A stretch of 64,000 bases of DNA, from assembly GCA_038890615.1 (NCBI GenBank), contig JAWAFI010000001.1, positions 240,744 to 304,743 of the forward strand. Direction: 5' to 3'. Below are positions 49,827-64,000 of this stretch, one piece after another. The notes below the pieces were generated by a model that saw only the letters and a program-made list of their open reading frames with translations, did no database searches and was not told the DNA's origin. The number at the start of each line of letters is the position of its first letter. Position 1 is the first letter of the stretch. Made by a program: the position numbers and the translations under genes. The stretch is from Candidatus Anstonellales archaeon. Lineage in GTDB: Archaea > Micrarchaeota > Micrarchaeia > Anstonellales > J096.

Positions 49827-51473
49827 CTATTCTATGCCGATAATTTTTTCCACAAGGGCAGCATAGGCAGGCCTTGAAACAAGGTAGCCCATGAGGGAGC
49901 CGAGTATCGTTGATATTGCAAACCCTATTACCTCCACCATTCCTGAGAAAAGCAAAGGCACCATAACGAGCACTGCGACAACTGTGTTCATTGTGATTAT
50001 CTCAAAAGCCCTAGAAAGCGACTCTTTTGCAGATGAGCCCTTCCTTAGAAGCTCGTCTGTTATTAGTATCTGCGCATCCACCCCTACTCCTATTGCAGCA
50101 ATGATGCCTGCCATTCCTGCCAAGTCAATGGTAAATGAGCCAAGTGTTGCAAGGAGTATGATCAGCTCCGAGATGCTTACGATCACAGCAGGGAAAATGA
50201 GCTTTATCTTCCTGTAGCGCACTGCAATTACCACTGACACGAAAAGGAGCGCCCCAACAATTCCTATCAAGCTTATCTCAAGGAAGGATTGCCCCAATGA
50301 AGGAGGTATTGAAATCAAGCTCCCTACTGAAATCCTGACAGGAAGAGAGCCGCCTTTCAGTATTGATTCTACAAAGCGCGCCTCTGCATCTGCCTCTACG
50401 AAGCTAAGCGCGCCTGCGCTGTCCCTTGCCTGGCCTCCTATCTGGTAGGAATATGAAGGCAGCCCTTCAGTGACCCCAGGAGACAAGACCGGGGCAGAAA
50501 GAAGGCCTGCTGCCTCCCATTTTGACACCCTTATCTCTCCTGTGGTTGGGTTTCTGAAAAGCTCTGGTAGCATGCTTTCTACTCTCTTTACTTTATACCC
50601 CTTTGCCTCAAGCGCTGCAGCAATTGAAGCGTCTGAAGCTACTGCTGTCCTGTTCTGGTATTCTGGCGCTGGCACCTCTGCGCTGCTTGAAACATAGAGT
50701 ATGCCGCTGCTGTCTCCCTCCAGAGCTATTGCCTTCCTGAGTGCTGACATCACCTCTGATTCCTTGAACTCTATTGAAAGGTTTGCCATGTCCTGCTTGG
50801 TGATTATGTAGGTTGCATTTTCCTCCCTGTCTATGAACATGTAAAGCGGATAATCTGCCTTTCCTTTTGCCACCTCTGCGAAATGCTCAGCGCCTTCTTT
50901 TGTCACAGAGAAATATACCGCCCAATTTTGCCCTCCAGGTAGGTTTCCGACATACCTTGAGATTGTGCCTGGCAGTATCTCCCTTCCGCTTATTGCCACC
51001 CTTCCATCAACAATGCCTGTGAAAACACCCTGTTTTGATATTGAGTTAAGTATAGCAGTAGTCCTCTCATCGTTTGTGCCTGGTATCTCAACATAAACTT
51101 GGGCATTCCCCAAAGCTGTGACGCGCACCTCTGTGAGGCCCATCACGCTTGCCCTTTTCTTTATTATGGTTATGACTTCCTGCATTGTTGTGTCATCAAC
51201 CTTATGCTCCAGCGTTATCGGTATCCTTGTGCCCCCTTGGAAATCTATGCCGAACTTCATGCCATGCGCAAATATGCTGATAATAGAAAGGGCAACTATT
51301 ACTGAAAGGAAAAATATCTTGTACTCTGGCTTCTCCATGGAGCCAGCAACAGCCCCAACTACCACTATTGCCACTATGAGCACAAGCCCTGTCGCAGCAG
51401 GGTAGAGCACTATGAGGGCCCCAAAGAAGGCAAGGAGGAAAACAGCCAATCCTGACTGCATGCTTACTTTCAT
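49827..51473 (-). CDS. secD: Protein-export membrane protein SecD
   Basis: GIDFQGGT, GGSLPV, PSLG, DLAGMAGIIAAIGVGVDAQILITDE. Confidence 0.93.
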   Translation of the reverse strand: MKVSMQSGLAVFLLAFFGALIVLYPAATGLVLIVAIVVVGAVAGSMEKPEYKIFFLSVIVALSIISIFAHGMKFGIDFQGGTRIPITLEHKVDDTTMQEVITIIKKRASVMGLTEVRVTALGNAQVYVEIPGTNDERTTAILNSISKQGVFTGIVDGRVAISGREILPGTISRYVGNLPGGQNWAVYFSVTKEGAEHFAEVAKGKADYPLYMFIDREENATYIITKQDMANLSIEFKESEVMSALRKAIALEGDSSGILYVSSSAEVPAPEYQNRTAVASDASIAAALEAKGYKVKRVESMLPELFRNPTTGEIRVSKWEAAGLLSAPVLSPGVTEGLPSYSYQIGGQARDSAGALSFVEADAEARFVESILKGGSLPVRISVGSLISIPPSLGQSFLEISLIGIVGALLFVSVVIAVRYRKIKLIFPAVIVSISELIILLATLGSFTIDLAGMAGIIAAIGVGVDAQILITDELLRKGSSAKESLSRAFEIITMNTVVAVLVMVPLLFSGMVEVIGFAISTILGSLMGYLVSRPAYAALVEKIIGIE

Positions 51474-52525
51474 ATCTTCCCCTCTGCGTGCAGCAGCATT
51501 ATCACTGCATTTATGCCCCATGTTGCAAACAAGTCCCCAACCAGGCCTGCAAGCGCCACTGCTGATATCTGGTAATAAACAGAAATATGGGTTATCTGCG
51601 AAACAGCGAAAAGCACTAGGAAAGAGCCTATTGCAGTAAGGCTCATTGTAACCCCTGTCTGTAGAGCATCAAAAGCCTTTTCCTTTGGGTCCCCCCTTCT
51701 CTTTATCATCCTGTTTGTGAGGACCATGTCAGTATCCAATGAGAAGCCAACAAGCATTAGCAGGGCTGCAAAAGAAGCAAGCGAGAGAGGAATGCCAAAA
51801 AGGCCCATTGCCCCTAGAGCAAGCACTATGTCGCACGCAGCCCCTATAAGGACAGCTAATGATGGTATTATCCTCCTGAAGAATAAGTAAACCGTAACAA
51901 TGCTAAGCACTGCTGCAAGGATTGCTGCATTCATTGCAGCAGAGAAGAACTGGCTGCTTAAAGCAGGGGATACTGATTGGACAGATAGCTTTTCAGCTGG
52001 TATGAATTGCGAAACCGTAGCCCTTATTTTCTGCTCGTATCCTATTTCTATTTCCCTATAAGCGTCTGATATTGTGTCCTTTAAGTCGTTCAGGTTTGTG
52101 ATTGATTCTGCATTCTTTGAACCCCCTGCAATCCTGAACAGCGCATTTGCCTTTTTGTTGAGCTCCTCCCTTGGGCCCACCTCGTTTTTCACCTGCGCCT
52201 CTGAAACTTGGTCTATCAAGGAAAGGGAGTCCTTGTAGAGTGAAGAGGCTTCATATAAGTAGGCAGGGGTTTCAACTTTTATCTCTACCTTCTTTCCTGC
52301 CAATGCTTCAAAAACACTTACCTCTGCATTGAAGCCCTTTTCCTCAAGGGCCTGCTTCAATGCAGGCGCATCTATGGAATCTACCTGCTCTGCGCTCACA
52401 AGGGTTCCGCCCATGAAATCAACCCCCATTTTTATTGAGGGTATGAAATAAAGCGCAGCCAGCAGAAGCAGTATAGGCAGAATAGCTAAGAGCTTGTAAT
52501 CATAATGATAAATGTTAGGGATCAT
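51470..52525 (-). CDS. secF: Protein-export membrane protein SecF
   Basis: GVDFMGGT, AALLMLVGFSLDTD, TGVTMSLT, GLVGDLFATW. Confidence 0.93.
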   Translation of the reverse strand: MIPNIYHYDYKLLAILPILLLLAALYFIPSIKMGVDFMGGTLVSAEQVDSIDAPALKQALEEKGFNAEVSVFEALAGKKVEIKVETPAYLYEASSLYKDSLSLIDQVSEAQVKNEVGPREELNKKANALFRIAGGSKNAESITNLNDLKDTISDAYREIEIGYEQKIRATVSQFIPAEKLSVQSVSPALSSQFFSAAMNAAILAAVLSIVTVYLFFRRIIPSLAVLIGAACDIVLALGAMGLFGIPLSLASFAALLMLVGFSLDTDMVLTNRMIKRRGDPKEKAFDALQTGVTMSLTAIGSFLVLFAVSQITHISVYYQISAVALAGLVGDLFATWGINAVIMLLHAEGKI

Positions 52526-52607
52526 CCACAACTCAAATGCCAGGAGGTGTTTTTAATTGTTTGTCTTGGAATGCAAAACATTAAAAAGTGATAAGAGTTA
52601 TTCTATT

Positions 52608-53009
52608 ATGGCAATGGAAAAAAGGAAGCTGCGGATGAAAGCCAGCCTGCTCAAGAGCAGAAGCAAACCAAAATGGAAAAAACCCTTATTTGATGAAGAA
52701 GATGAAGGCAAGGCAGTGACAAAGAAGCAGTGGATGGAATTAAGCCCTCTATCAAAGGCTGCTTATCAGGGTGATGTGAAGAAGATAAAGGAACTTTTGA
52801 AAGAAGGCGCAAACCCTGATGTTAGGGACAGCAAGAAAAGGACCCCTCTTATATGGGCTGCCATAGGAAACCAGCCGAAGGCAGCAAAGGCCCTTCTTGA
52901 AGGAGGCGCATCTCTTGAAAAAATTGATGCTTATGGAAAGGGGGCTTTTGATTACGCAGATGATAGTGTTAAGGAAGTATTAATAGACTATGACATTATT
53001 TTTGAATAA
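52608..53009 (+). CDS. Ankyrin-repeat protein
   Basis: SPLSKAA..G, TPLIWAA..N, LL..GA repeats. Confidence 0.88.
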   Translation: MAMEKRKLRMKASLLKSRSKPKWKKPLFDEEDEGKAVTKKQWMELSPLSKAAYQGDVKKIKELLKEGANPDVRDSKKRTPLIWAAIGNQPKAAKALLEGGASLEKIDAYGKGAFDYADDSVKEVLIDYDIIFE

Positions 53010-53014
53010 ATAAG

Positions 53015-53407
53015 GTGATGGGAATGACAGAAAAGGTAGATGGGAAAGACAAGGAAAAATTGGAGAAAAAAGGGTTTGAAGAAAGGGCTGAAAAGCAAGA
53101 GATGAATGAAAGAAAAAGGGAACTTTCCCTATTTGACCTGTTCAGGGAAGCTGAAAGGAGGAAAATGGAAGAAGGGGAAGGGAGGGTTAAGCAAAAGGAT
53201 GTAAATTATAAAGATGAAAAAGACAGGACCCCTATATTTTACGCCGTCATAAAGAATGACTTGGAAGAGGTTAAGAGGCTGATATCAGAAGGCGCTAATT
53301 TGCTTTTGCGAGACAAAAACGGCCTTATGCCCATTGATTATGCAACTACCCCAGAAGTAAGGAGAATCTTATCAAAAGAGATGAAAAGGCAGTTCCTTGA
53401 AGGGTAG
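53015..53407 (+). CDS. Ankyrin-repeat protein
   Basis: DVNYKDEKDRTPIFYAV...LISEGA...D.NG..PIDYA. Confidence 0.85.
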   Translation: MMGMTEKVDGKDKEKLEKKGFEERAEKQEMNERKRELSLFDLFREAERRKMEEGEGRVKQKDVNYKDEKDRTPIFYAVIKNDLEEVKRLISEGANLLLRDKNGLMPIDYATTPEVRRILSKEMKRQFLEG

Positions 53408-56144: not shown

Positions 56145-56792
56145 ATGAAGAGGTACATAGCAGAATTCCTGGCTTCTTTCATTCTTGTCTTTCTCACTTC
56201 TGCGGTTTACCTGCTAAACACATTTGAGCAGGTGAACTATGTGGTTGTGCCGCTTGGCTATGGCCTTGCTGCAATGGTCGCCTATTATGCATTTTGGAGA
56301 AAATATGATGTGCATGCTACTCCATTGATGAGCTTTGCCATGCTCGTAACAAAGAAGATAGAGATGAAGCCTTTTGTGTACTTCTTGATATGCCAATTCT
56401 TAGGGGCCCTTATAGGGGTTGCTGTGCTTCCTCTTATCTTCCCGCAGGCAGTGAAGATAAACTATGGGCTTCCGACAGCTGCTGATTTCCAGAGGATAAC
56501 AGAGGTGTGCGCTCTATGCATAGAGGCGCTTTGCTCCTTGGTCTTCGTGCTTGCAACTTACAGGGCATTTGTGCACGACAAGCAGAATGTTCCTTGGATA
56601 GCAGGGCTTTCTTATGCTGCTGTAGCTTTCCTCGCATCTCCAATAACAGCAGCAATGCTCAACCCATTGAGGGCGCTTGCTTTGGGCATCATATCTGGCT
56701 ACCTTGAAACGCAGCCTGTTTACTGGATTGGAGGGCTGCTAGGCGCAGGCGTAGGGGCTCTTATCTACAATGTAGTTTTTGAGAAAGAATAA
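56145..56792 (+). CDS. MIP/aquaporin family channel with divergent NPA motifs
   Basis: AEF, HATPLMS, QFLGA, LNPLRA, VYWIG. Confidence 0.85.
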   Translation: MKRYIAEFLASFILVFLTSAVYLLNTFEQVNYVVVPLGYGLAAMVAYYAFWRKYDVHATPLMSFAMLVTKKIEMKPFVYFLICQFLGALIGVAVLPLIFPQAVKINYGLPTAADFQRITEVCALCIEALCSLVFVLATYRAFVHDKQNVPWIAGLSYAAVAFLASPITAAMLNPLRALALGIISGYLETQPVYWIGGLLGAGVGALIYNVVFEKE

Positions 56793-57355: not shown

Positions 57356-58054
57356 CTACTGGAGTTCCACGTAGAAGTAGTATGTCTCTGTGTCCACTCC
57401 GTTCTCTGGTGTTGGGACAAGTGCTGCAAAGTCACCTGCAGTTACAGTGTCATAAACTATGGTGCCATCAACAACTGGTGTGCAGAACAGGAACTGGTCC
57501 TTTGGAGCTGCAGAGTTATCCATGAGAAGGCAAGTGTTCTGCTCACCTGATATGTCAGCTCCTGCTGGTGTCACTGCTGGTGCACCAGTTGCATCATACC
57601 CTGCAATCTCTAATGCTGCGCATGCTCCTGCCATTGTGCTGGTTATGCTGTCGGTGTAAGCAGTGTTGAAGTTCCAGTCAGAGTCTGCTGTTGCCACTAC
57701 CCCATCAGCTAGCCCATCCCATGCTGGACCTGCGCTTGTCGAAAGGCAAACGACACCGCCATCAGATGGATCCCATGCCCATGTGTGGAACTCTGCTGTG
57801 CCATCTGAATCAGCAAGCACTATAGCGCTCCCTGCAGTAAACTCTCCTACTATGCCTGCCCACCTGGTTGTGGTAGAGGTTGCATCCAAGTTTCCTCCGT
57901 ATATCATGCCTCCAGTTACTGTTTCAGATGCTGTAGCTCCACCATTGTCATATGGCCCCCATGTTGTTGTTTGAGTCCAGGTTGTTGCTGGCCCCACTGC
58001 CATCGCTAATCCCATCAGCCCGAAAAGAGCCAATGCCAAAAATCTTGTGCTCAT
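57356..58054 (-). CDS. Secreted cell-surface protein (putative filament subunit 1)
   Basis: Sec signal peptide; Thr/Ala/Asp-rich; W-A-G, FHxW, GVV, DF..LVP and terminal YYFYVEL motifs; no TM anchor. Confidence 0.75.
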   Translation of the reverse strand: MSTRFLALALFGLMGLAMAVGPATTWTQTTTWGPYDNGGATASETVTGGMIYGGNLDATSTTTRWAGIVGEFTAGSAIVLADSDGTAEFHTWAWDPSDGGVVCLSTSAGPAWDGLADGVVATADSDWNFNTAYTDSITSTMAGACAALEIAGYDATGAPAVTPAGADISGEQNTCLLMDNSAAPKDQFLFCTPVVDGTIVYDTVTAGDFAALVPTPENGVDTETYYFYVELQ

Positions 58055-58209
58055 TCTTTACCCACCCTCTGTTTACTTTGTTGCCCTCTTTCTCTACACT
58101 CCATGACTATAGAGGGCAGAGATATAAAAAAGTTTGTTTTAAAAGCCTTTCGCTTTTTTCTCAGAAAATAGAGAGGTTTTATAGGTTGCTTCCTTGGGGG
58201 CATTTGCTT

Positions 58210-58917
58210 TCAGTGCAAGTCAACATAAAAGTAGTAGGTCAAGGTAGGGTCATATGTTGCTGCTGTTGGAACAACAAGCTGGAAATCTGCGTTGTCTGTG
58301 CCTCCTAACAAGTCCATGCCTGGCTTTATCTCACTGCAGAATGCAAATTGAGTAGGTTTTATTTTAATGGCCCCAGTGCGCTTTATCACGCATGTCTGCG
58401 CAGAGGCATCAGCACCAGGCATGTTTGGGGTTAGTGCAGCAGTGCCTGTTAAGTCAAGCCCAGCAACCTCAAAGCCATTGCAGTCCGCTGCAAGGGTGTT
58501 TGAAGAGCTGTCGCTGTCTAGAGGGTCAAAGCCCCATGCATAATCTACTGTGCTGTTGTTTGTAAGCCCTGCAAGGCCCCAAGGGTAGTTGCTATTCAAT
58601 GAAAGGCAAACAACCCCTCCATTTGATGGTGCCCAGCTCCACTGGTGGAAAACGCTTGCGCCTTCTGAGTTTCCAAGGAGGATGCTTATGCCAGATGTGA
58701 ACGTGCCAAAAACCCCTGCCCATTTCTGGGTTGTGTGCTCTATCTCAAAATCCTGCTGGTATTGCGTTTCGGCTTCAACAGGCAGGCTTGCAATGTTTGC
58801 ATTAAGGGAAGGGTATGGGCCGTATTCTGCTGTCTGGGTCCAGTCTGTTGCTGGCCCTATTGAACAAGCTACCCCTATTGCGAAAAGTGCAAGCAGCATT
58901 CCCCTCTTTGCGCCCAT
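58210..58917 (-). CDS. Secreted cell-surface protein (putative filament subunit 2), paralog of 57356-58054
   Basis: Colinear with the neighbour: GPAT.WTQT...GPY, WAG, FH.W.W.P..GGVVCLS, four conserved Cys, YYFYVDL. Confidence 0.75.
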   Translation of the reverse strand: MGAKRGMLLALFAIGVACSIGPATDWTQTAEYGPYPSLNANIASLPVEAETQYQQDFEIEHTTQKWAGVFGTFTSGISILLGNSEGASVFHQWSWAPSNGGVVCLSLNSNYPWGLAGLTNNSTVDYAWGFDPLDSDSSSNTLAADCNGFEVAGLDLTGTAALTPNMPGADASAQTCVIKRTGAIKIKPTQFAFCSEIKPGMDLLGGTDNADFQLVVPTAATYDPTLTYYFYVDLH

Positions 58918-59009
58918 TATTTCCCCCTTTTCTGATTAAGGAAAGGAGAACCTCTTTAAAAGCTTTTGGGCAGGGCAAGGTTTATAAAATCCTGCTTCTT
59001 ATTAACCCC

Positions 59010-60671
59010 ATGAACTTTTACAAGATCTTGCCACTGCTATTTGTTGGAGTGCTATTTCTAAACGCTGCAAGCGCCTTGGTTGTTACCAACTCAGCAGATG
59101 GAAGGGACACTGTAAGCGCCATATATTATGCAAATGTGAAAGGCGAAGATATAAGGTTTGCCACGAGGTACCAGAATGCTGAGATGTTCTTCTACAAAGT
59201 TGGCACTCAAGGCAGGGATATACTTTACATAGAATCAAAGAATTATCCAATATTCGCATTTGCAAAGGAAAAGATAGCCCAGACAAACACAATAAAGGAG
59301 GAAATAATATCAGAGGATCCATACAAGACCAACCAGCTGCTTGCAAAAAAGAGCGGTGCTCAGAATTTCATAATAGTTGATCCTACTTACGGCTACAACA
59401 CTGTGTCAGTGCTTGCATATGCAAAGGCAACTAAATCCTACTTGCTTTTTGCAAACAAGGATTTGATAGCTGATGTTGTTGCTGTTCTCAAGGAAGTGGG
59501 GGCAAAGAAAATACTCGTGTATGGACTTGTTGATGAGGAGGTCATAGTAGAGCTCAACAAGACAGGAATACAAATGGAAATAATAAATAATAAGGACAAG
59601 TATGATGACAACATGCAGATGGTAGAAAGAACGCTTAAGCTGACTGGAAGGAGGCAGATGATAATGTCAGACGGCAATGCAATAGAGGAATCAATTGCGT
59701 CTGGGTCTGACCCTGTTATCTTCATAAACACCCTTTTCCCAAGGGATGTTGAAGCCTTCCTTATGAATAAGGTGAGGGATGGGGAAGTAAGTGTTTTCCT
59801 GCTTATAGGGGAGGAATATGCACAGGCAGCCTACAACTTCAAGCAGAAGGCAAAGCAGGAGCTTGGCAAGGAAGTCAGCATTATAGCAAAATTCGGTGAA
59901 GTGATACCAAAAATGGGTGAAGACCCACAGCCAAACAACTATGTTGTGCTTCCTGGGCCTGTGCTTGATCTCCAGATAAGCGCAGTCAACTACAACAGCA
60001 AGACAAAGAGGCTGGAGGTAATATTCAAGAACAGCGGAGCCCCTGTATATGAAAGCTCAGAAATAATCGTCTTTGTAAATGGCCAAAAGGTTTTGAGCAT
60101 AATTGACCCTAAGCCAATCTACATAGAAACAGCTGATGAATATGGTGTTGAGTATGATGTCCAGCAATCGCTTGAGGGGGAGGTAGGGGCAAACATAACT
60201 ACAAGGTATGGCATGTCCTCAAAATACTACGAGAAGGGATTTGTGGTTTACTCAAAGATAGGATATGTTGAATTCTACGATGCTTCAAACCTTTCAATAG
60301 CAGACATAAGCACTGATCCATTTAGCGGAGATGTGAAGGTAAAGGTTGAAAACAAAGGGGAAAAGTTGGTTTATTACAGGCTAACCACAAAGCTAGTAGG
60401 GGCAAAGAACACTACTGTAAGCGATCAGGAGATTAGGGAGCTTCAACCAGGCGAAAGCGCAGTGATAAGCTATTCAGGTGTCCTCAAAGGCACAGAAGCA
60501 ACTTCTGTTGAAAGCACTGCTAAATACGGGGAGAGGAAGGCTTTCCTTAAGAATGAAGCAACCCTTTCAAGAAGGGTGGCAACTCTTCTGGATGCCCTTT
60601 GGCTGCCATTGCTAATACTGGTTGTGCTAATAGCAATAGCCCTTTACATCTTGAGCAAAAGGCAAAAGTGA
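59010..60671 (+). CDS. Secreted, C-terminally anchored protein with cell-wall-binding-2-like repeats and Ig-like domains
   Basis: Signal peptide MNFYKILPLL...; repeats IISEDPYKTN / IINNKDKYDDN resembling the CWB2 I.G.DRY.T motif; two beta-rich domains; C-terminal TM helix plus KRQK. Confidence 0.6.
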   Translation: MNFYKILPLLFVGVLFLNAASALVVTNSADGRDTVSAIYYANVKGEDIRFATRYQNAEMFFYKVGTQGRDILYIESKNYPIFAFAKEKIAQTNTIKEEIISEDPYKTNQLLAKKSGAQNFIIVDPTYGYNTVSVLAYAKATKSYLLFANKDLIADVVAVLKEVGAKKILVYGLVDEEVIVELNKTGIQMEIINNKDKYDDNMQMVERTLKLTGRRQMIMSDGNAIEESIASGSDPVIFINTLFPRDVEAFLMNKVRDGEVSVFLLIGEEYAQAAYNFKQKAKQELGKEVSIIAKFGEVIPKMGEDPQPNNYVVLPGPVLDLQISAVNYNSKTKRLEVIFKNSGAPVYESSEIIVFVNGQKVLSIIDPKPIYIETADEYGVEYDVQQSLEGEVGANITTRYGMSSKYYEKGFVVYSKIGYVEFYDASNLSIADISTDPFSGDVKVKVENKGEKLVYYRLTTKLVGAKNTTVSDQEIRELQPGESAVISYSGVLKGTEATSVESTAKYGERKAFLKNEATLSRRVATLLDALWLPLLILVVLIAIALYILSKRQK

Positions 60672-60675
60672 TGAG

Positions 60676-61401
60676 ATGCCTGAAGCAGAGGGATTCCCAA
60701 AGCCAAAGGCAGTGCCTGAGAAAGTTGTGCAGGAAGCAACAACTTTCGTGGAGTATTATATAAAGGAGCTTTTGGCGCAGTTGGGAAAGGCATATAAGAA
60801 GGGCGCATGGGATTGTGTCACAGTGCCAATGAATGCAATAAGGAAACTCTACTTAAAAATTACAGGAGAAAAGCCAAAAAACCTTGATTTGAACTACTTC
60901 AGGAATGGCGGTTTACTGCTACAGAGGTATAAAGAAGCTGGGGGCTCTTTAAGCATAATAAGCCCTGATGAGCTGAAAGAGGGCAAGGGAATAAGCACAG
61001 GTAATTTAGTAATGCGCCTAATTGAAGTGAAGAAAGGCGATGAAAAAGCAATAAGTGCAATGAAGGCAGCCCTGAACGCAGGTGATTTGGCTGTTTACCA
61101 GGATTGGCATGGGGACTGCCACCTTCTAAAGAAAAAGGAAGCGTTGGGAAAGATAAATGAGTTGAAGGATGGCGAGCATCTATACATTGTGAGGCACTAC
61201 CTAACTGCGGACACAAGAGAAGGTGAGCTTAAGCTGATACATGCCTCGAGTGCAAAAGGCAAGGTAGTAAAGGAACCTGTTGAAGACTATCTTAAGGATA
61301 AAGTAAATCAGAAGAGCTTTTACATAGTTATTGATTTGGAGAAGGCATTAGGGGTAGAAAATTGGCTAAGAGGGAAAAAACAGGAAAAACAGAAAGCTTA
61401 G
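60676..61401 (+). CDS. NlpC/P60-superfamily (papain-like) protein
   Basis: Y.KGAWDCVT, L.AGDL, HLYIV, LIHASS..GKVV..P..DYL. Confidence 0.65.
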   Translation: MPEAEGFPKPKAVPEKVVQEATTFVEYYIKELLAQLGKAYKKGAWDCVTVPMNAIRKLYLKITGEKPKNLDLNYFRNGGLLLQRYKEAGGSLSIISPDELKEGKGISTGNLVMRLIEVKKGDEKAISAMKAALNAGDLAVYQDWHGDCHLLKKKEALGKINELKDGEHLYIVRHYLTADTREGELKLIHASSAKGKVVKEPVEDYLKDKVNQKSFYIVIDLEKALGVENWLRGKKQEKQKA

Positions 61402-64000
61402 TTAGTTTAGTTCAACCCAGATGCTTACTGTCCCTGAAGAGCCCGTATAAGTGTCAAGGGTTTCAGGCACTATTATCTCATAATCGTAAGTGCCGTAGCC
61501 TCCTTCTGTGCCTTTCATTATCGGGGATATAAACACTATGTCCTCAGCATCTGCTGGGTCAAACTCAGCATTTCCTGTGTCATCAGAGAAGTCCCACACA
61601 ATGCCTGTAACAAAGCATTGGTCCCAAGTGGTTGTGCAGTTGTCTGCACTGCTTGGGTATATCGGGTATTGCACGAACCTTCCATACATATAAGAAGATG
61701 TAGTATTTTTAGCGTTTGTACCATCAATTGAGAATGTGTAGTTTATATTATCCACATAATCACTTGTGCCAAGCACTGCGTCTGCATCCTCAAAGTCAGT
61801 TGCGCCAAGGCCAAGCCCTATGAGGTTGCCCCAGTCAATTGTTGCATCGCTGTTGGCAACGTAAACCATGCCTCTGTGGCCGTTCCAAGTCCATTGGTAG
61901 AATCTCTGGTTTGCAGCAGAGCCTGCGGCCAAGGTTATGTTGCCTGAGACATTGCCATATATTGTTGCCCAGAGGCCTCCTGAAAGGATTGTCATGTTCT
62001 CACTGCAGAAGCTGTCCTCCTCAAAGCCATCATTGCCATAGGCGCAGAAGCTCCAATTCTCATCCTTGTGCGTCATTGAGCTATGTATTATGTAGGGCTT
62101 GCTGCTTGCGTAAAGCGCCATCTGTCCTGCTTTTATGTCCATGTCGTAGAAGCGGAAGTCATCTATAAACCCATTAAAAGCTGTCTCTGTTGAGTTCTCC
62201 AAAGCCCCTATCCTTAAAGTGTCATTTGGCTGGTCAAGAACGCCTGGCACAACGCTTGCTACTTGAACCCCATCAAGGAACATCCTTAAGGTAAGCCCAT
62301 TGTAGGAAACCCCTACGTGGTGCCATGCGCCTTGGAGGTTGCCTGAGTTGTATGTAAGGGTTGAGGGGAAGGAATCTCCGCTAACCATGTAGTTGAACCT
62401 AAGCGAGTTGGCAGTATAGTAAAGGCCTGTGTAGTGGGTTGAGTTGCGATATATTCCATAGATGTATCCAGAGGATCCATTTATGTATACCCATGCGTCC
62501 ATTGCAAAAGGCACATCCCCTGAAGGCAACACGCCTGTTGCATCTGGAAGATAAAGGAAGGAGTCTTGATTGACACCGAAATAATATGAGCCAGAGCCAT
62601 TGTGGCCTTTGGTAAGGGTGGGTAAAGGAGCCCCTGTGCCTTCTGTGTTGAGGCGGCCTGCTGGCCTAAGCGTTATGGTCTTGTCCCTTCCGTAGTTTTT
62701 GATCACGAAGCTCTCGTTGCCATCTATTCCTTCAAATGGAAGGTAGAGCACTGCTATGCTTTTGCCATTTAGGCGCCAGTCAACTATATTCTCAACATAG
62801 TCCCTTTCTGTTTCGTTGTTGCCTTCATCAACAACGGTTATGTTTGCAATAAGGTTCTCCCTGCTTGTGTTCTTGCCTAGAGAGGAGTTTATGAAACCCT
62901 CTATGTCAGGCGGATTAGGAACTATTGTAATGTTGCCAGTGCATGTGCTGTTTTCTTCGTAGCCATCGTTGGCGTAAACACACAGGGAATAGTTGTGGCC
63001 TATTTTAGTGCCCCTGAAGAGCCTCCTATCACTGCGGTTCGCAGCAATTGCTGCTATCTGTTCTGGGCTAAGCGCCCTATCATAAACTTCAAAGTTGTCT
63101 ATATGGCCATCAAAATCTCCGTAAATGTCCCTACTGCCTATCTTAAGATAGTCCTTTGGCTGGGAGAGAGGACCTGGTATTATTCTTTCTGTTTCTACTC
63201 CGTCTACATAGAGCCTTATTGTGACTCCATCATAAGTAACTGCAATGTGGTGCCATTGGTTGAGTGGTATGCCTGGTCCTGATATAGTACTGAAAAACAA
63301 GTCTCCATCTCTCATGTAGGCAAATGTTGTTGCGGTTGGTTGGGCATATAAGTATGACATGTTGTTTCCCCCTGTTCCGTGTTGGGTGTATATATAACCA
63401 TTGCCTCCAGAAGAGGTAAGGTTCACCCAAGCCATATAAGTGAAGTTTTGGTTTCCGTAGGGAAGCTCTGAAGTGTCTATGTTTGAGAATAGGAGGTAAT
63501 TCTCCTTTGCGTTCTCAAAGAAGTATGCTCCTGAGCCGTTGTAGCCTGTTGTGAAGTTCCACCATGGCGGGTTCCTTAAGGCAGAGTATCCCCTTGCGTA
63601 TGGGGTTATGTTCAATGACTTGTTCCTTCCGTAGTTCTTTGTTGTCTGGAGCTCAAAGCCGTCGTTTCCTTCAAATGGGAGGTTCATGAGTGCCATTGTG
63701 ATGCCATCCTCTTTCCACTCATATATTATTTCAATGTGGTCTCTTGCACCTTCGCGGTTTCCTCCTGAAGCAACAACTGTTGCAGTAAGGTTCTCTTGGG
63801 TTGTGTTAAGGTTTAATGCTGTTGAAAGCGTTGCTGAAATGGTTGGCTTGTTCTCAGGTATTGTAATATTCTCAGTGCATGTGCTGTTTTCTTCGTAGCC
63901 GTCATTTGCATAAACGCAGAGCGAATAGTTGCTCCCGACATGGGTGTCCCTAAATGAAATGACATTGGTTTGGTTTGAGGCGAAAAGGGCTATCTGCTCT
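61402..64000 (-). CDS. Large LamG (concanavalin A-like) repeat surface protein, 5' end beyond the window
   Basis: Frame stays open from 63696 to 64000. LamG motifs WHHIAVTYDG..LYVDG, FDGHID; many N-x-S/T sequons; C-terminal domain related to 57356/58210. Confidence 0.88.
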   Translation of the reverse strand, partial: EQIALFASNQTNVISFRDTHVGSNYSLCVYANDGYEENSTCTENITIPENKPTISATLSTALNLNTTQENLTATVVASGGNREGARDHIEIIYEWKEDGITMALMNLPFEGNDGFELQTTKNYGRNKSLNITPYARGYSALRNPPWWNFTTGYNGSGAYFFENAKENYLLFSNIDTSELPYGNQNFTYMAWVNLTSSGGNGYIYTQHGTGGNNMSYLYAQPTATTFAYMRDGDLFFSTISGPGIPLNQWHHIAVTYDGVTIRLYVDGVETERIIPGPLSQPKDYLKIGSRDIYGDFDGHIDNFEVYDRALSPEQIAAIAANRSDRRLFRGTKIGHNYSLCVYANDGYEENSTCTGNITIVPNPPDIEGFINSSLGKNTSRENLIANITVVDEGNNETERDYVENIVDWRLNGKSIAVLYLPFEGIDGNESFVIKNYGRDKTITLRPAGRLNTEGTGAPLPTLTKGHNGSGSYYFGVNQDSFLYLPDATGVLPSGDVPFAMDAWVYINGSSGYIYGIYRNSTHYTGLYYTANSLRFNYMVSGDSFPSTLTYNSGNLQGAWHHVGVSYNGLTLRMFLDGVQVASVVPGVLDQPNDTLRIGALENSTETAFNGFIDDFRFYDMDIKAGQMALYASSKPYIIHSSMTHKDENWSFCAYGNDGFEEDSFCSENMTILSGGLWATIYGNVSGNITLAAGSAANQRFYQWTWNGHRGMVYVANSDATIDWGNLIGLGLGATDFEDADAVLGTSDYVDNINYTFSIDGTNAKNTTSSYMYGRFVQYPIYPSSADNCTTTWDQCFVTGIVWDFSDDTGNAEFDPADAEDIVFISPIMKGTEGGYGTYDYEIIVPETLDTYTGSSGTVSIWVELN
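62005..64000 (-). repeat. Intragenic 936-bp (312-aa) tandem repeat units
   Basis: The C-x-Y-x-N-D-G-x-E-E-x-S-x-C motif recurs at 62005, 62941 and 63877, exactly 936 bp apart. The last two copies share GCATGTGCTGTTTTCTTCGTAGCC. Confidence 0.85.

Follow-up and report, generated by a model that had tools for sequence, protein, structure and literature searches.

The window analysed here is a 64,000-nucleotide stretch of an archaeal genome, G000 (G000:C1:240744-304743; bare positions below are window coordinates); this genome is 846 kb in size and 94% complete. From position 57356 onwards it carries genes for secreted proteins that we group into classes: S, the stand-alone small subunits; T, a giant armless protein; D, a CWB2-like partner; and C, a membrane-anchored homologue encoded beyond the window. 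These four secreted proteins are a co-inherited, conserved and unannotated surface system. They likely represent a new, non-type-IV donor-strand fimbrial family, known here from its genes, the filament being predicted.

Both S genes lie on the reverse strand. A (S1; 57356-58054, -) encodes 232 residues, composed of a signal peptide (residues 1-19), an arm (residues 20-64) and a core (residues 65-232) ending in YYFYVELQ. The arm (57863-57997, -), with the tip ETVT-GG-MIYGGNL, is a predicted donor hairpin. B (S2; 58210-58917, -) encodes 235 residues, and its arm tip, EAETQY, lacks the GG turn (G50) that is kept in 98% of the family. Divergent from B, D (59010-60671, +) encodes 553 residues with a signal peptide, CWB2-like repeats, a CARDB/immunoglobulin (Ig)-like part and a C-terminal transmembrane (TM) segment; a longer start at 58815 was rejected because it overlaps B and the signal peptide begins at 59010. 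T enters the window with its last 865 residues (61402-64000, -), the end of a giant secreted LamG/Ig-repeat protein and candidate tip adhesin, which closes with an armless S-family domain (61402-61980, -). Its N-terminal piece of 2,804 residues (G000:C1:304733-313255) lies beyond a scaffold gap of 100 N with overlapping flanks; the whole protein has a signal peptide and six Pfam LamG_3 stretches, and measures about 3,640 residues if the gap hides no repeat. C, a candidate membrane anchor of 654 residues (G000:C1:314555-316519, +; L002:14556-16520), lies about 1.3 kb upstream of T and divergent from it, and combines an arm tip, a degenerate S core, a stalk and a C-terminal TM segment. An earlier note on this DNA gave the coordinates and motifs of A, B and the end of the LamG protein (61402) correctly; A, B and T remain in its gene set, to which D and C, overlooked there, are added, and the LamG open reading frame (ORF) runs past the window.

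A shared domain and its genomic distribution

Profile comparisons indicate that A, B, T and C share one unannotated domain. A and B are 41% identical, and B and the T domain, compared as a single pair, reach just E = 2e-5 over 54 residues. Against a T-free profile built from 102 stand-alone small proteins, the T domain scores 62.8 bits, while the best of 1000 shuffles scores 12.2. HHalign matches the S and T profiles with Prob 99.5 (E = 2.4e-22, 165 columns, starting near the WAG motif) and the C and S profiles with Prob 99.4. The common motif order that the earlier note had read in the C-terminal 190 or so residues of the LamG protein and in the small proteins thus reflects a homologous domain, and the N-terminal extension of about 45 residues that it described corresponds to residues 20-64 of A and is absent from T. 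A survey with profiles, as that note had proposed, found 628 representatives at E<=0.001, clustered at 50% identity, and the profile-profile similarity is significant; the 3, 0 and 7 matches returned by word-indexed homologue searches mark a sensitivity limit, given this number.

Database names for family members are 'hypothetical protein'. In scans of 102 members at E<=0.1, no family was matched by more than one member in Pfam or by more than five in NCBIfam, and a stray HrpA match (E = 0.009) was the only pilin name. The same 102 members gave no match to DUF1102 or to the methanococcal-type S-layer families PF05123 and PF05124, and PDB sequences gave 0 matches at E<=10. No description of the family was found in the full-text literature, a body of text that leaves most subscription papers and all supplements outside its coverage. 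The family is therefore undescribed, as first supposed, in Pfam, NCBIfam, the PDB and the literature reached.

The domain occurs in four layouts. S consists of a signal peptide and the domain. In class I, a passenger precedes the whole domain including the arm, with the domain starting near profile position 25. In C, a signal peptide is followed by a domain that starts near position 42, a stalk and a TM tail. In T, a passenger is followed by a domain starting near position 62-65. The class I, C and T starts are three discrete points, and T starts at position 52-66 in 24 of 27 cases, defining a terminal class without the donor segment. Class I makes up most of the 62 long representatives, giant fusions that retain the whole arm. 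The passengers to whose C-terminus the domain is joined are very varied (beta-helix, LamG, CARDB, F5/8, HINT); one class I protein, P0146, carries an intein/HINT domain in its passenger. The small and LamG proteins had been described as having no membrane anchor, and indeed a C-terminal TM segment is found in 0/232 S and 0/50 T proteins, compared with 1/69 for class I, 44/53 for C and 90/93 for D. A C-class variant of about 520 residues without the TM tail occurs in L049 (4547-6115), L081 and L123; in L049 it is followed by two more secreted genes, the last with TM segments, and anchoring may be split over genes there. A quick tree of 162 domains places T on one side of a branch across phyla and does the same for C (Shimodaira-Hasegawa-like approximate likelihood-ratio test values of 99 and 93); it derives class I from S on at least several occasions and joins A and B as sisters.

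The classes travel together. Among 60 relatives, the family is present in 24, T in 21 and C in 19 (a match in G037 was dropped as an S gene) plus one weak match, all of them family-positive, and D is present in 23, of which 22 are within the family-positive 24; the alignments behind these counts were partly built from the same genomes, and the genomes are related to one another. D lies no more than 400 bp from an S gene in 52 of the 63 named loci, and a contig scan with D alone gave no match. The family is found in 72/301 genomes of its own phylum, in 88/301 of the phylum of a Woesearchaeota genome, with S genes often in tandem (one unpublished), in 21/190 of the order of Methanoperedens and in 3/401 of a broad sample of the phylum of Methanogenium. 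Seven pattern matches in viral contigs were not confirmed. The named loci are mostly from Micrarchaeota, joined by Woesearchaeota, Iainarchaeum, Undinarchaeota, Methanoperedens, Methanogaster and the cultured methanogen Methanogenium cariaci (L117), which carries S, D, T and C together. Two earlier expectations give way here. The range extends beyond DPANN archaea to Methanosarcinales and Methanogenium, and the pair of small proteins, taken as major and minor shaft subunits, is not a conserved unit, since A and B are lineage-specific sister paralogs and just 13 of 63 named S loci have more than one S gene.

Export by the Sec route, proposed from the start, is supported by the N-termini. They are hydrophobic in 88 of 89 S proteins, as Sec-type signal peptides, and neither twin-arginine translocation (Tat) motifs (0/89) nor lipoboxes (0/89) were found. 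A loose class-III-like motif is present in 5/89. The model of mature A has no N-terminal helix, unlike type IV pilins that retain the class III signal peptide. B has such a motif by eye, which its orthologue P0003 lacks, and was rejected as a class III pilin. No assembly ATPase is encoded at the locus, with PF00437 matches located elsewhere in G000. Signal peptidase families PF10502 and PF00717 have no match anywhere in G000, so even the housekeeping peptidase is missed; it may be divergent or absent from the assembly.

Predicted structure and arm-core covariation

The AlphaFold2 model of mature A is confident (predicted local distance difference test, pLDDT, 91; predicted template modelling score 0.86) and has a beta-rich core. 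Its first 44 residues are placed confidently, yet DSSP assigns them no strand pairing. The T domain model (pLDDT 87) shows the strand order of the S core with the arm missing, and confidence falls to 65-69 in the hairpin that would flank the donor strand. The Foldseek comparison suggested earlier returned no known pilin or solved fold at E<=0.001 in searches of PDB and BFVD. The best VIA-align scores are Z = 3.2 (root-mean-square deviation, rmsd, 4.4, 118 residues aligned) and Z = 3.0 (rmsd 4.8, 102 aligned), with no known pilin near the top; the absence of a fold match for the A or T domain models does not by itself prove a new fold.

Covariation links the arm to the core. Gaussian direct coupling analysis (DCA) of 308 domains recovers pairings among the predicted core strands, and two arm-core pairs, 45-69 and 47-67, are among its seven highest-ranked. 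These two pairs join the arm tip to the first core strand in antiparallel order, the pairs 53-67 and 55-69 join it in parallel order, and further arm-core couplings are seen at 57-101 and 52-198. Among 235 stand-alone subunits the pairs 45-69 and 47-67 come first and third, and once the set is enlarged to 286 they come second and third; they hold in 3/3 half-samples and are gone once the arm block is shuffled (maximum z 3.5). In 73 fused class I domains the same pairs are lost (z 1.9 and 1.5), whereas 6/6 size-matched subsamples of stand-alone subunits keep them (z 3.1-8.9). Such a loss would follow if the arm of one chain met the groove of another.

The coupled positions give a pair rule, a large residue at 47 with a small one at 67 or a small residue at 47 with Gln at 67. 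Within S it is obeyed in 135/136 cases, a circular figure because the rule was derived there. Applied to C, the rule shows that the C arm fits the groove of the neighbouring S in 21/22 loci but C's own groove in 5/22. No other result argues as strongly for an arm working in trans, and for C as a donor that does not accept, as this match to S and not to itself.

A predicted fimbria and the alternatives

From the sequences and monomer models, we consider it fairly probable that the locus encodes a Sec-exported donor-strand fimbria with C as base anchor and T as armless tip. Once exported, a subunit would complete the core of the next one outward with its arm tip (strand b1, GG turn, strand b2), and small subunits would chain head-to-tail, the N-terminal hairpin arm of each inserted into its neighbour's groove. 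C would sit at the base in the membrane; having kept the arm tip and the membrane tail but lost the N-terminal wall and the groove match, it could only donate and would hold the base. T, being armless, could only accept, and would cap the distal end with its LamG array pointing outward. Class I giants, which retain the arm and are absent from this genome, would be optional, decorated shaft subunits. A is likely the main shaft subunit, and B, which the T profile scores while it does not score A, is possibly a specialised (tip) adaptor. Adhesion to cells or surfaces is the likely purpose of the system; the carbohydrate binding by the tip and the host attachment put forward in the earlier note are conjectures.

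D would serve as an envelope tether or seeding platform. PF04122 (CWB2) matches 10/39 D homologues at E<=0.01 (best 3.9e-7), the D of the window being among the unmatched; D also matches the Clostridioides difficile S-layer protein 7ACX at E = 7.6e-4, and the CWB2 module is seen by predicted structure as well (Atlas). Sequence and predicted structure point to a repeat module that D would share with C. difficile SlpA, but D is archaeal, TM-anchored and equipped with Ig-like domains. Its likely role is that of a CWB2-like partner in the membrane, tethering the fibre to envelope glycans or seeding it there; of the whole model, this is the least certain element.

Several points weigh against the fimbria. 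It is known from genes and predictions, with no filament observed. The donor-strand logic put forward in the earlier note stands in that the arm is unpaired, covaries with the core and, in C, fits S, but the docking of S to T does not follow as readily: the S arm fits the T groove rule in just 10/22 loci, failing in most Micrarchaeota-type loci although it fits here, and T is also missing the N-terminal segment whose residues covary with the donor strand. It is also possible to draw these couplings as a tight meander within a single chain. With about 250-270 effective sequences the DCA is shallow, and its sequences are related; the lower variety of the fused set at the two arm positions is another possible cause of its weaker signal; and the groove rule comes from S and was extended, by matching patterns, to those loci that could be parsed. 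Finally, the classes were set by profile score, so that their clustering in the tree, itself a quick version, is partly circular.

Three other readings have to be weighed against the same evidence. The shared domain could be a self-contained sorting or docking module, with S, T and class I as monomers or small complexes captured by D or C and no long polymer. Its C-terminal position on such varied passengers, the confident folding of T without an arm (pLDDT 87) and the failure of the S-to-T groove rule in 12/22 loci would suit a module of this kind; we nevertheless regard it as unlikely, because stand-alone S, though found in tandem arrays, has no passenger to sort, the A model leaves the arm unpaired, and the C arm matches S rather than C. 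Alternatively, arms may indeed be donated, but the product would be a short stalk, or a branched tether, of a few subunits, carrying giant adhesins through the S-layer in place of a long fimbria. Whatever speaks for donation in trans is equally compatible with so short an assembly, reach is already supplied by passengers of 1,300-7,600 residues, and the degenerate arm of B could limit growth. Against this, covariation between like subunits peaks in stand-alone S, where numerous S-S contacts would produce it, and no length-limiting component is seen among the conserved parts, so we give the short stalk little credence.

Least probable of all, in our assessment, is a two-dimensional lattice of S, as an S-layer, sheath or matrix protein, with D and C as its anchors. 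The homology of D to the module (CWB2) by which the C. difficile S-layer protein is anchored and the richness of S in N-glycosylation sequons (623 in 89 proteins) speak for a lattice. The patchy range (72/301, 88/301, 21/190 and 3/401 genomes), the separate 878-residue S_layer_C protein of this genome and the distinct donor-only and armless classes, which suggest polarity, speak against it. The predicted fimbria can also be read more broadly, as a widespread class with a new fold, internal beta-hairpin donation, a donor-only anchor, an armless giant tip, repeatedly evolved plug-in subunits and a CWB2 platform, which would be a main attachment organelle in about 1/4-1/3 of Micrarchaeota and Nanobdellota and would be shared with Methanoperedens; we hold this extension as plausible, though short of probable.

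Known donor-strand systems and neighbouring genes

In the type 1 and P pili of the chaperone-usher pathway (FimA, FimH, PapH), the donor arm points distally, an armless lectin forms the tip and a terminator closes the base. The logic here would be the same, but no chaperone or usher homologue is found among the four parts, and the envelope is archaeal. The comparison with FimH drawn in the earlier note captures T, an armless, adhesin-like terminal class, and fits that one clade only, as many giants keep the whole arm.

The Tat-fimbria (tafi) of Haloarcula hispanica is a proposed linear donor-strand fibre of paralogous subunits, and shares with the present system a LamG-bearing tip (TafC) and a membrane anchor with a subunit-like N-terminal domain (TafF) (PMC11821415). 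Tafi relies on Tat export and a dedicated signal peptidase, TafD (PMC11821415), whereas the S proteins here are Sec-type, with 0/89 Tat motifs. TafC has its pilin domain at the N-terminus and LamG at the C-terminus (PMC11821415); in T, the armless domain stands at the C-terminus. Donation by TafA runs towards the anchor (PMC11821415); here anchor C is itself the predicted donor, D is CWB2-like and DUF1102 is unmatched. The Sulfolobus thread (Saci_0406/Saci_0405) is likewise exported by Sec and signal peptidase I, is not a type IV filament, assembles by N-terminal donor-strand complementation and has a donor-only paralog as cap (PMC9715654, PMC11607397). Its donor is a single N-terminal strand with an isopeptide at the N-terminal Asp (PMC9715654, PMC11607397), in contrast to the internal hairpin predicted here. 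Also unlike the thread, the donor-only paralog here is membrane-anchored and a giant armless adhesin is present, and the PDB search gave no sequence match to the thread. Archaeal bundling pili (AbpA)/TasA, the cannula protein CanA and the Pam pili of the candidate phyla radiation are further donor-strand polymers whose export needs no type IV ATPase; reports on such systems are PMC9245690, PMC12518558 and PMC13278184. None of these polymers was matched in the solved-structure sequence search, and no SipW-like peptidase gene was seen in this genome with the two peptidase profiles, which miss the housekeeping enzyme as well. By analogy, then, the system would work like tafi, the Sulfolobus thread and chaperone-usher pili, without a sequence link to any of them.

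Little is settled about the means by which DPANN archaea locate their hosts and stay attached to them. The system names a concrete, common and hitherto unrecognised candidate attachment apparatus for mostly uncultured cells; it assigns testable roles to hundreds of hypothetical proteins and would account for a class of giant adhesins without a membrane anchor. The full S-D-T-C locus of M. cariaci makes it directly testable in a cultured organism. If true, a self-assembling new fold with an archaeal CWB2 partner would be relevant to structural and envelope biologists. Thin unidentified filaments are described in electron cryotomography of one Micrarchaeote (PMC11329633).

An ORF of 241 residues between D and T (60676-61401, +) was rejected as a part of the system, since it has no homologue in 20 related loci; its product has no Pfam, NCBIfam or PDB match, and its motifs WDCVT and LIHASS may resemble those of papain-like DUF1460/NlpC amidases. 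Homologues of secD and secF lie at 49827-52531 (-), about 5 kb from the subunit genes. An aquaporin-family gene and two short genes that look ankyrin-like by eye adjoin the locus (56145-56792, +; 52557-53407, +). Elsewhere in G000, which has no class I member, a second T of 1,340 residues with CARDB lies outside the window (G000:C1:28356-32408); upstream of it is a large gene encoding Ig repeats and a C-terminal TM segment, which is likewise split by a 100-N gap (L001:6357-14990 = G000:C1:28356-37000). The 878-residue S_layer_C protein is encoded at G000:C1:480348-482861 (+), has PF05124 matches at both ends and is likely the S-layer protein of this genome.

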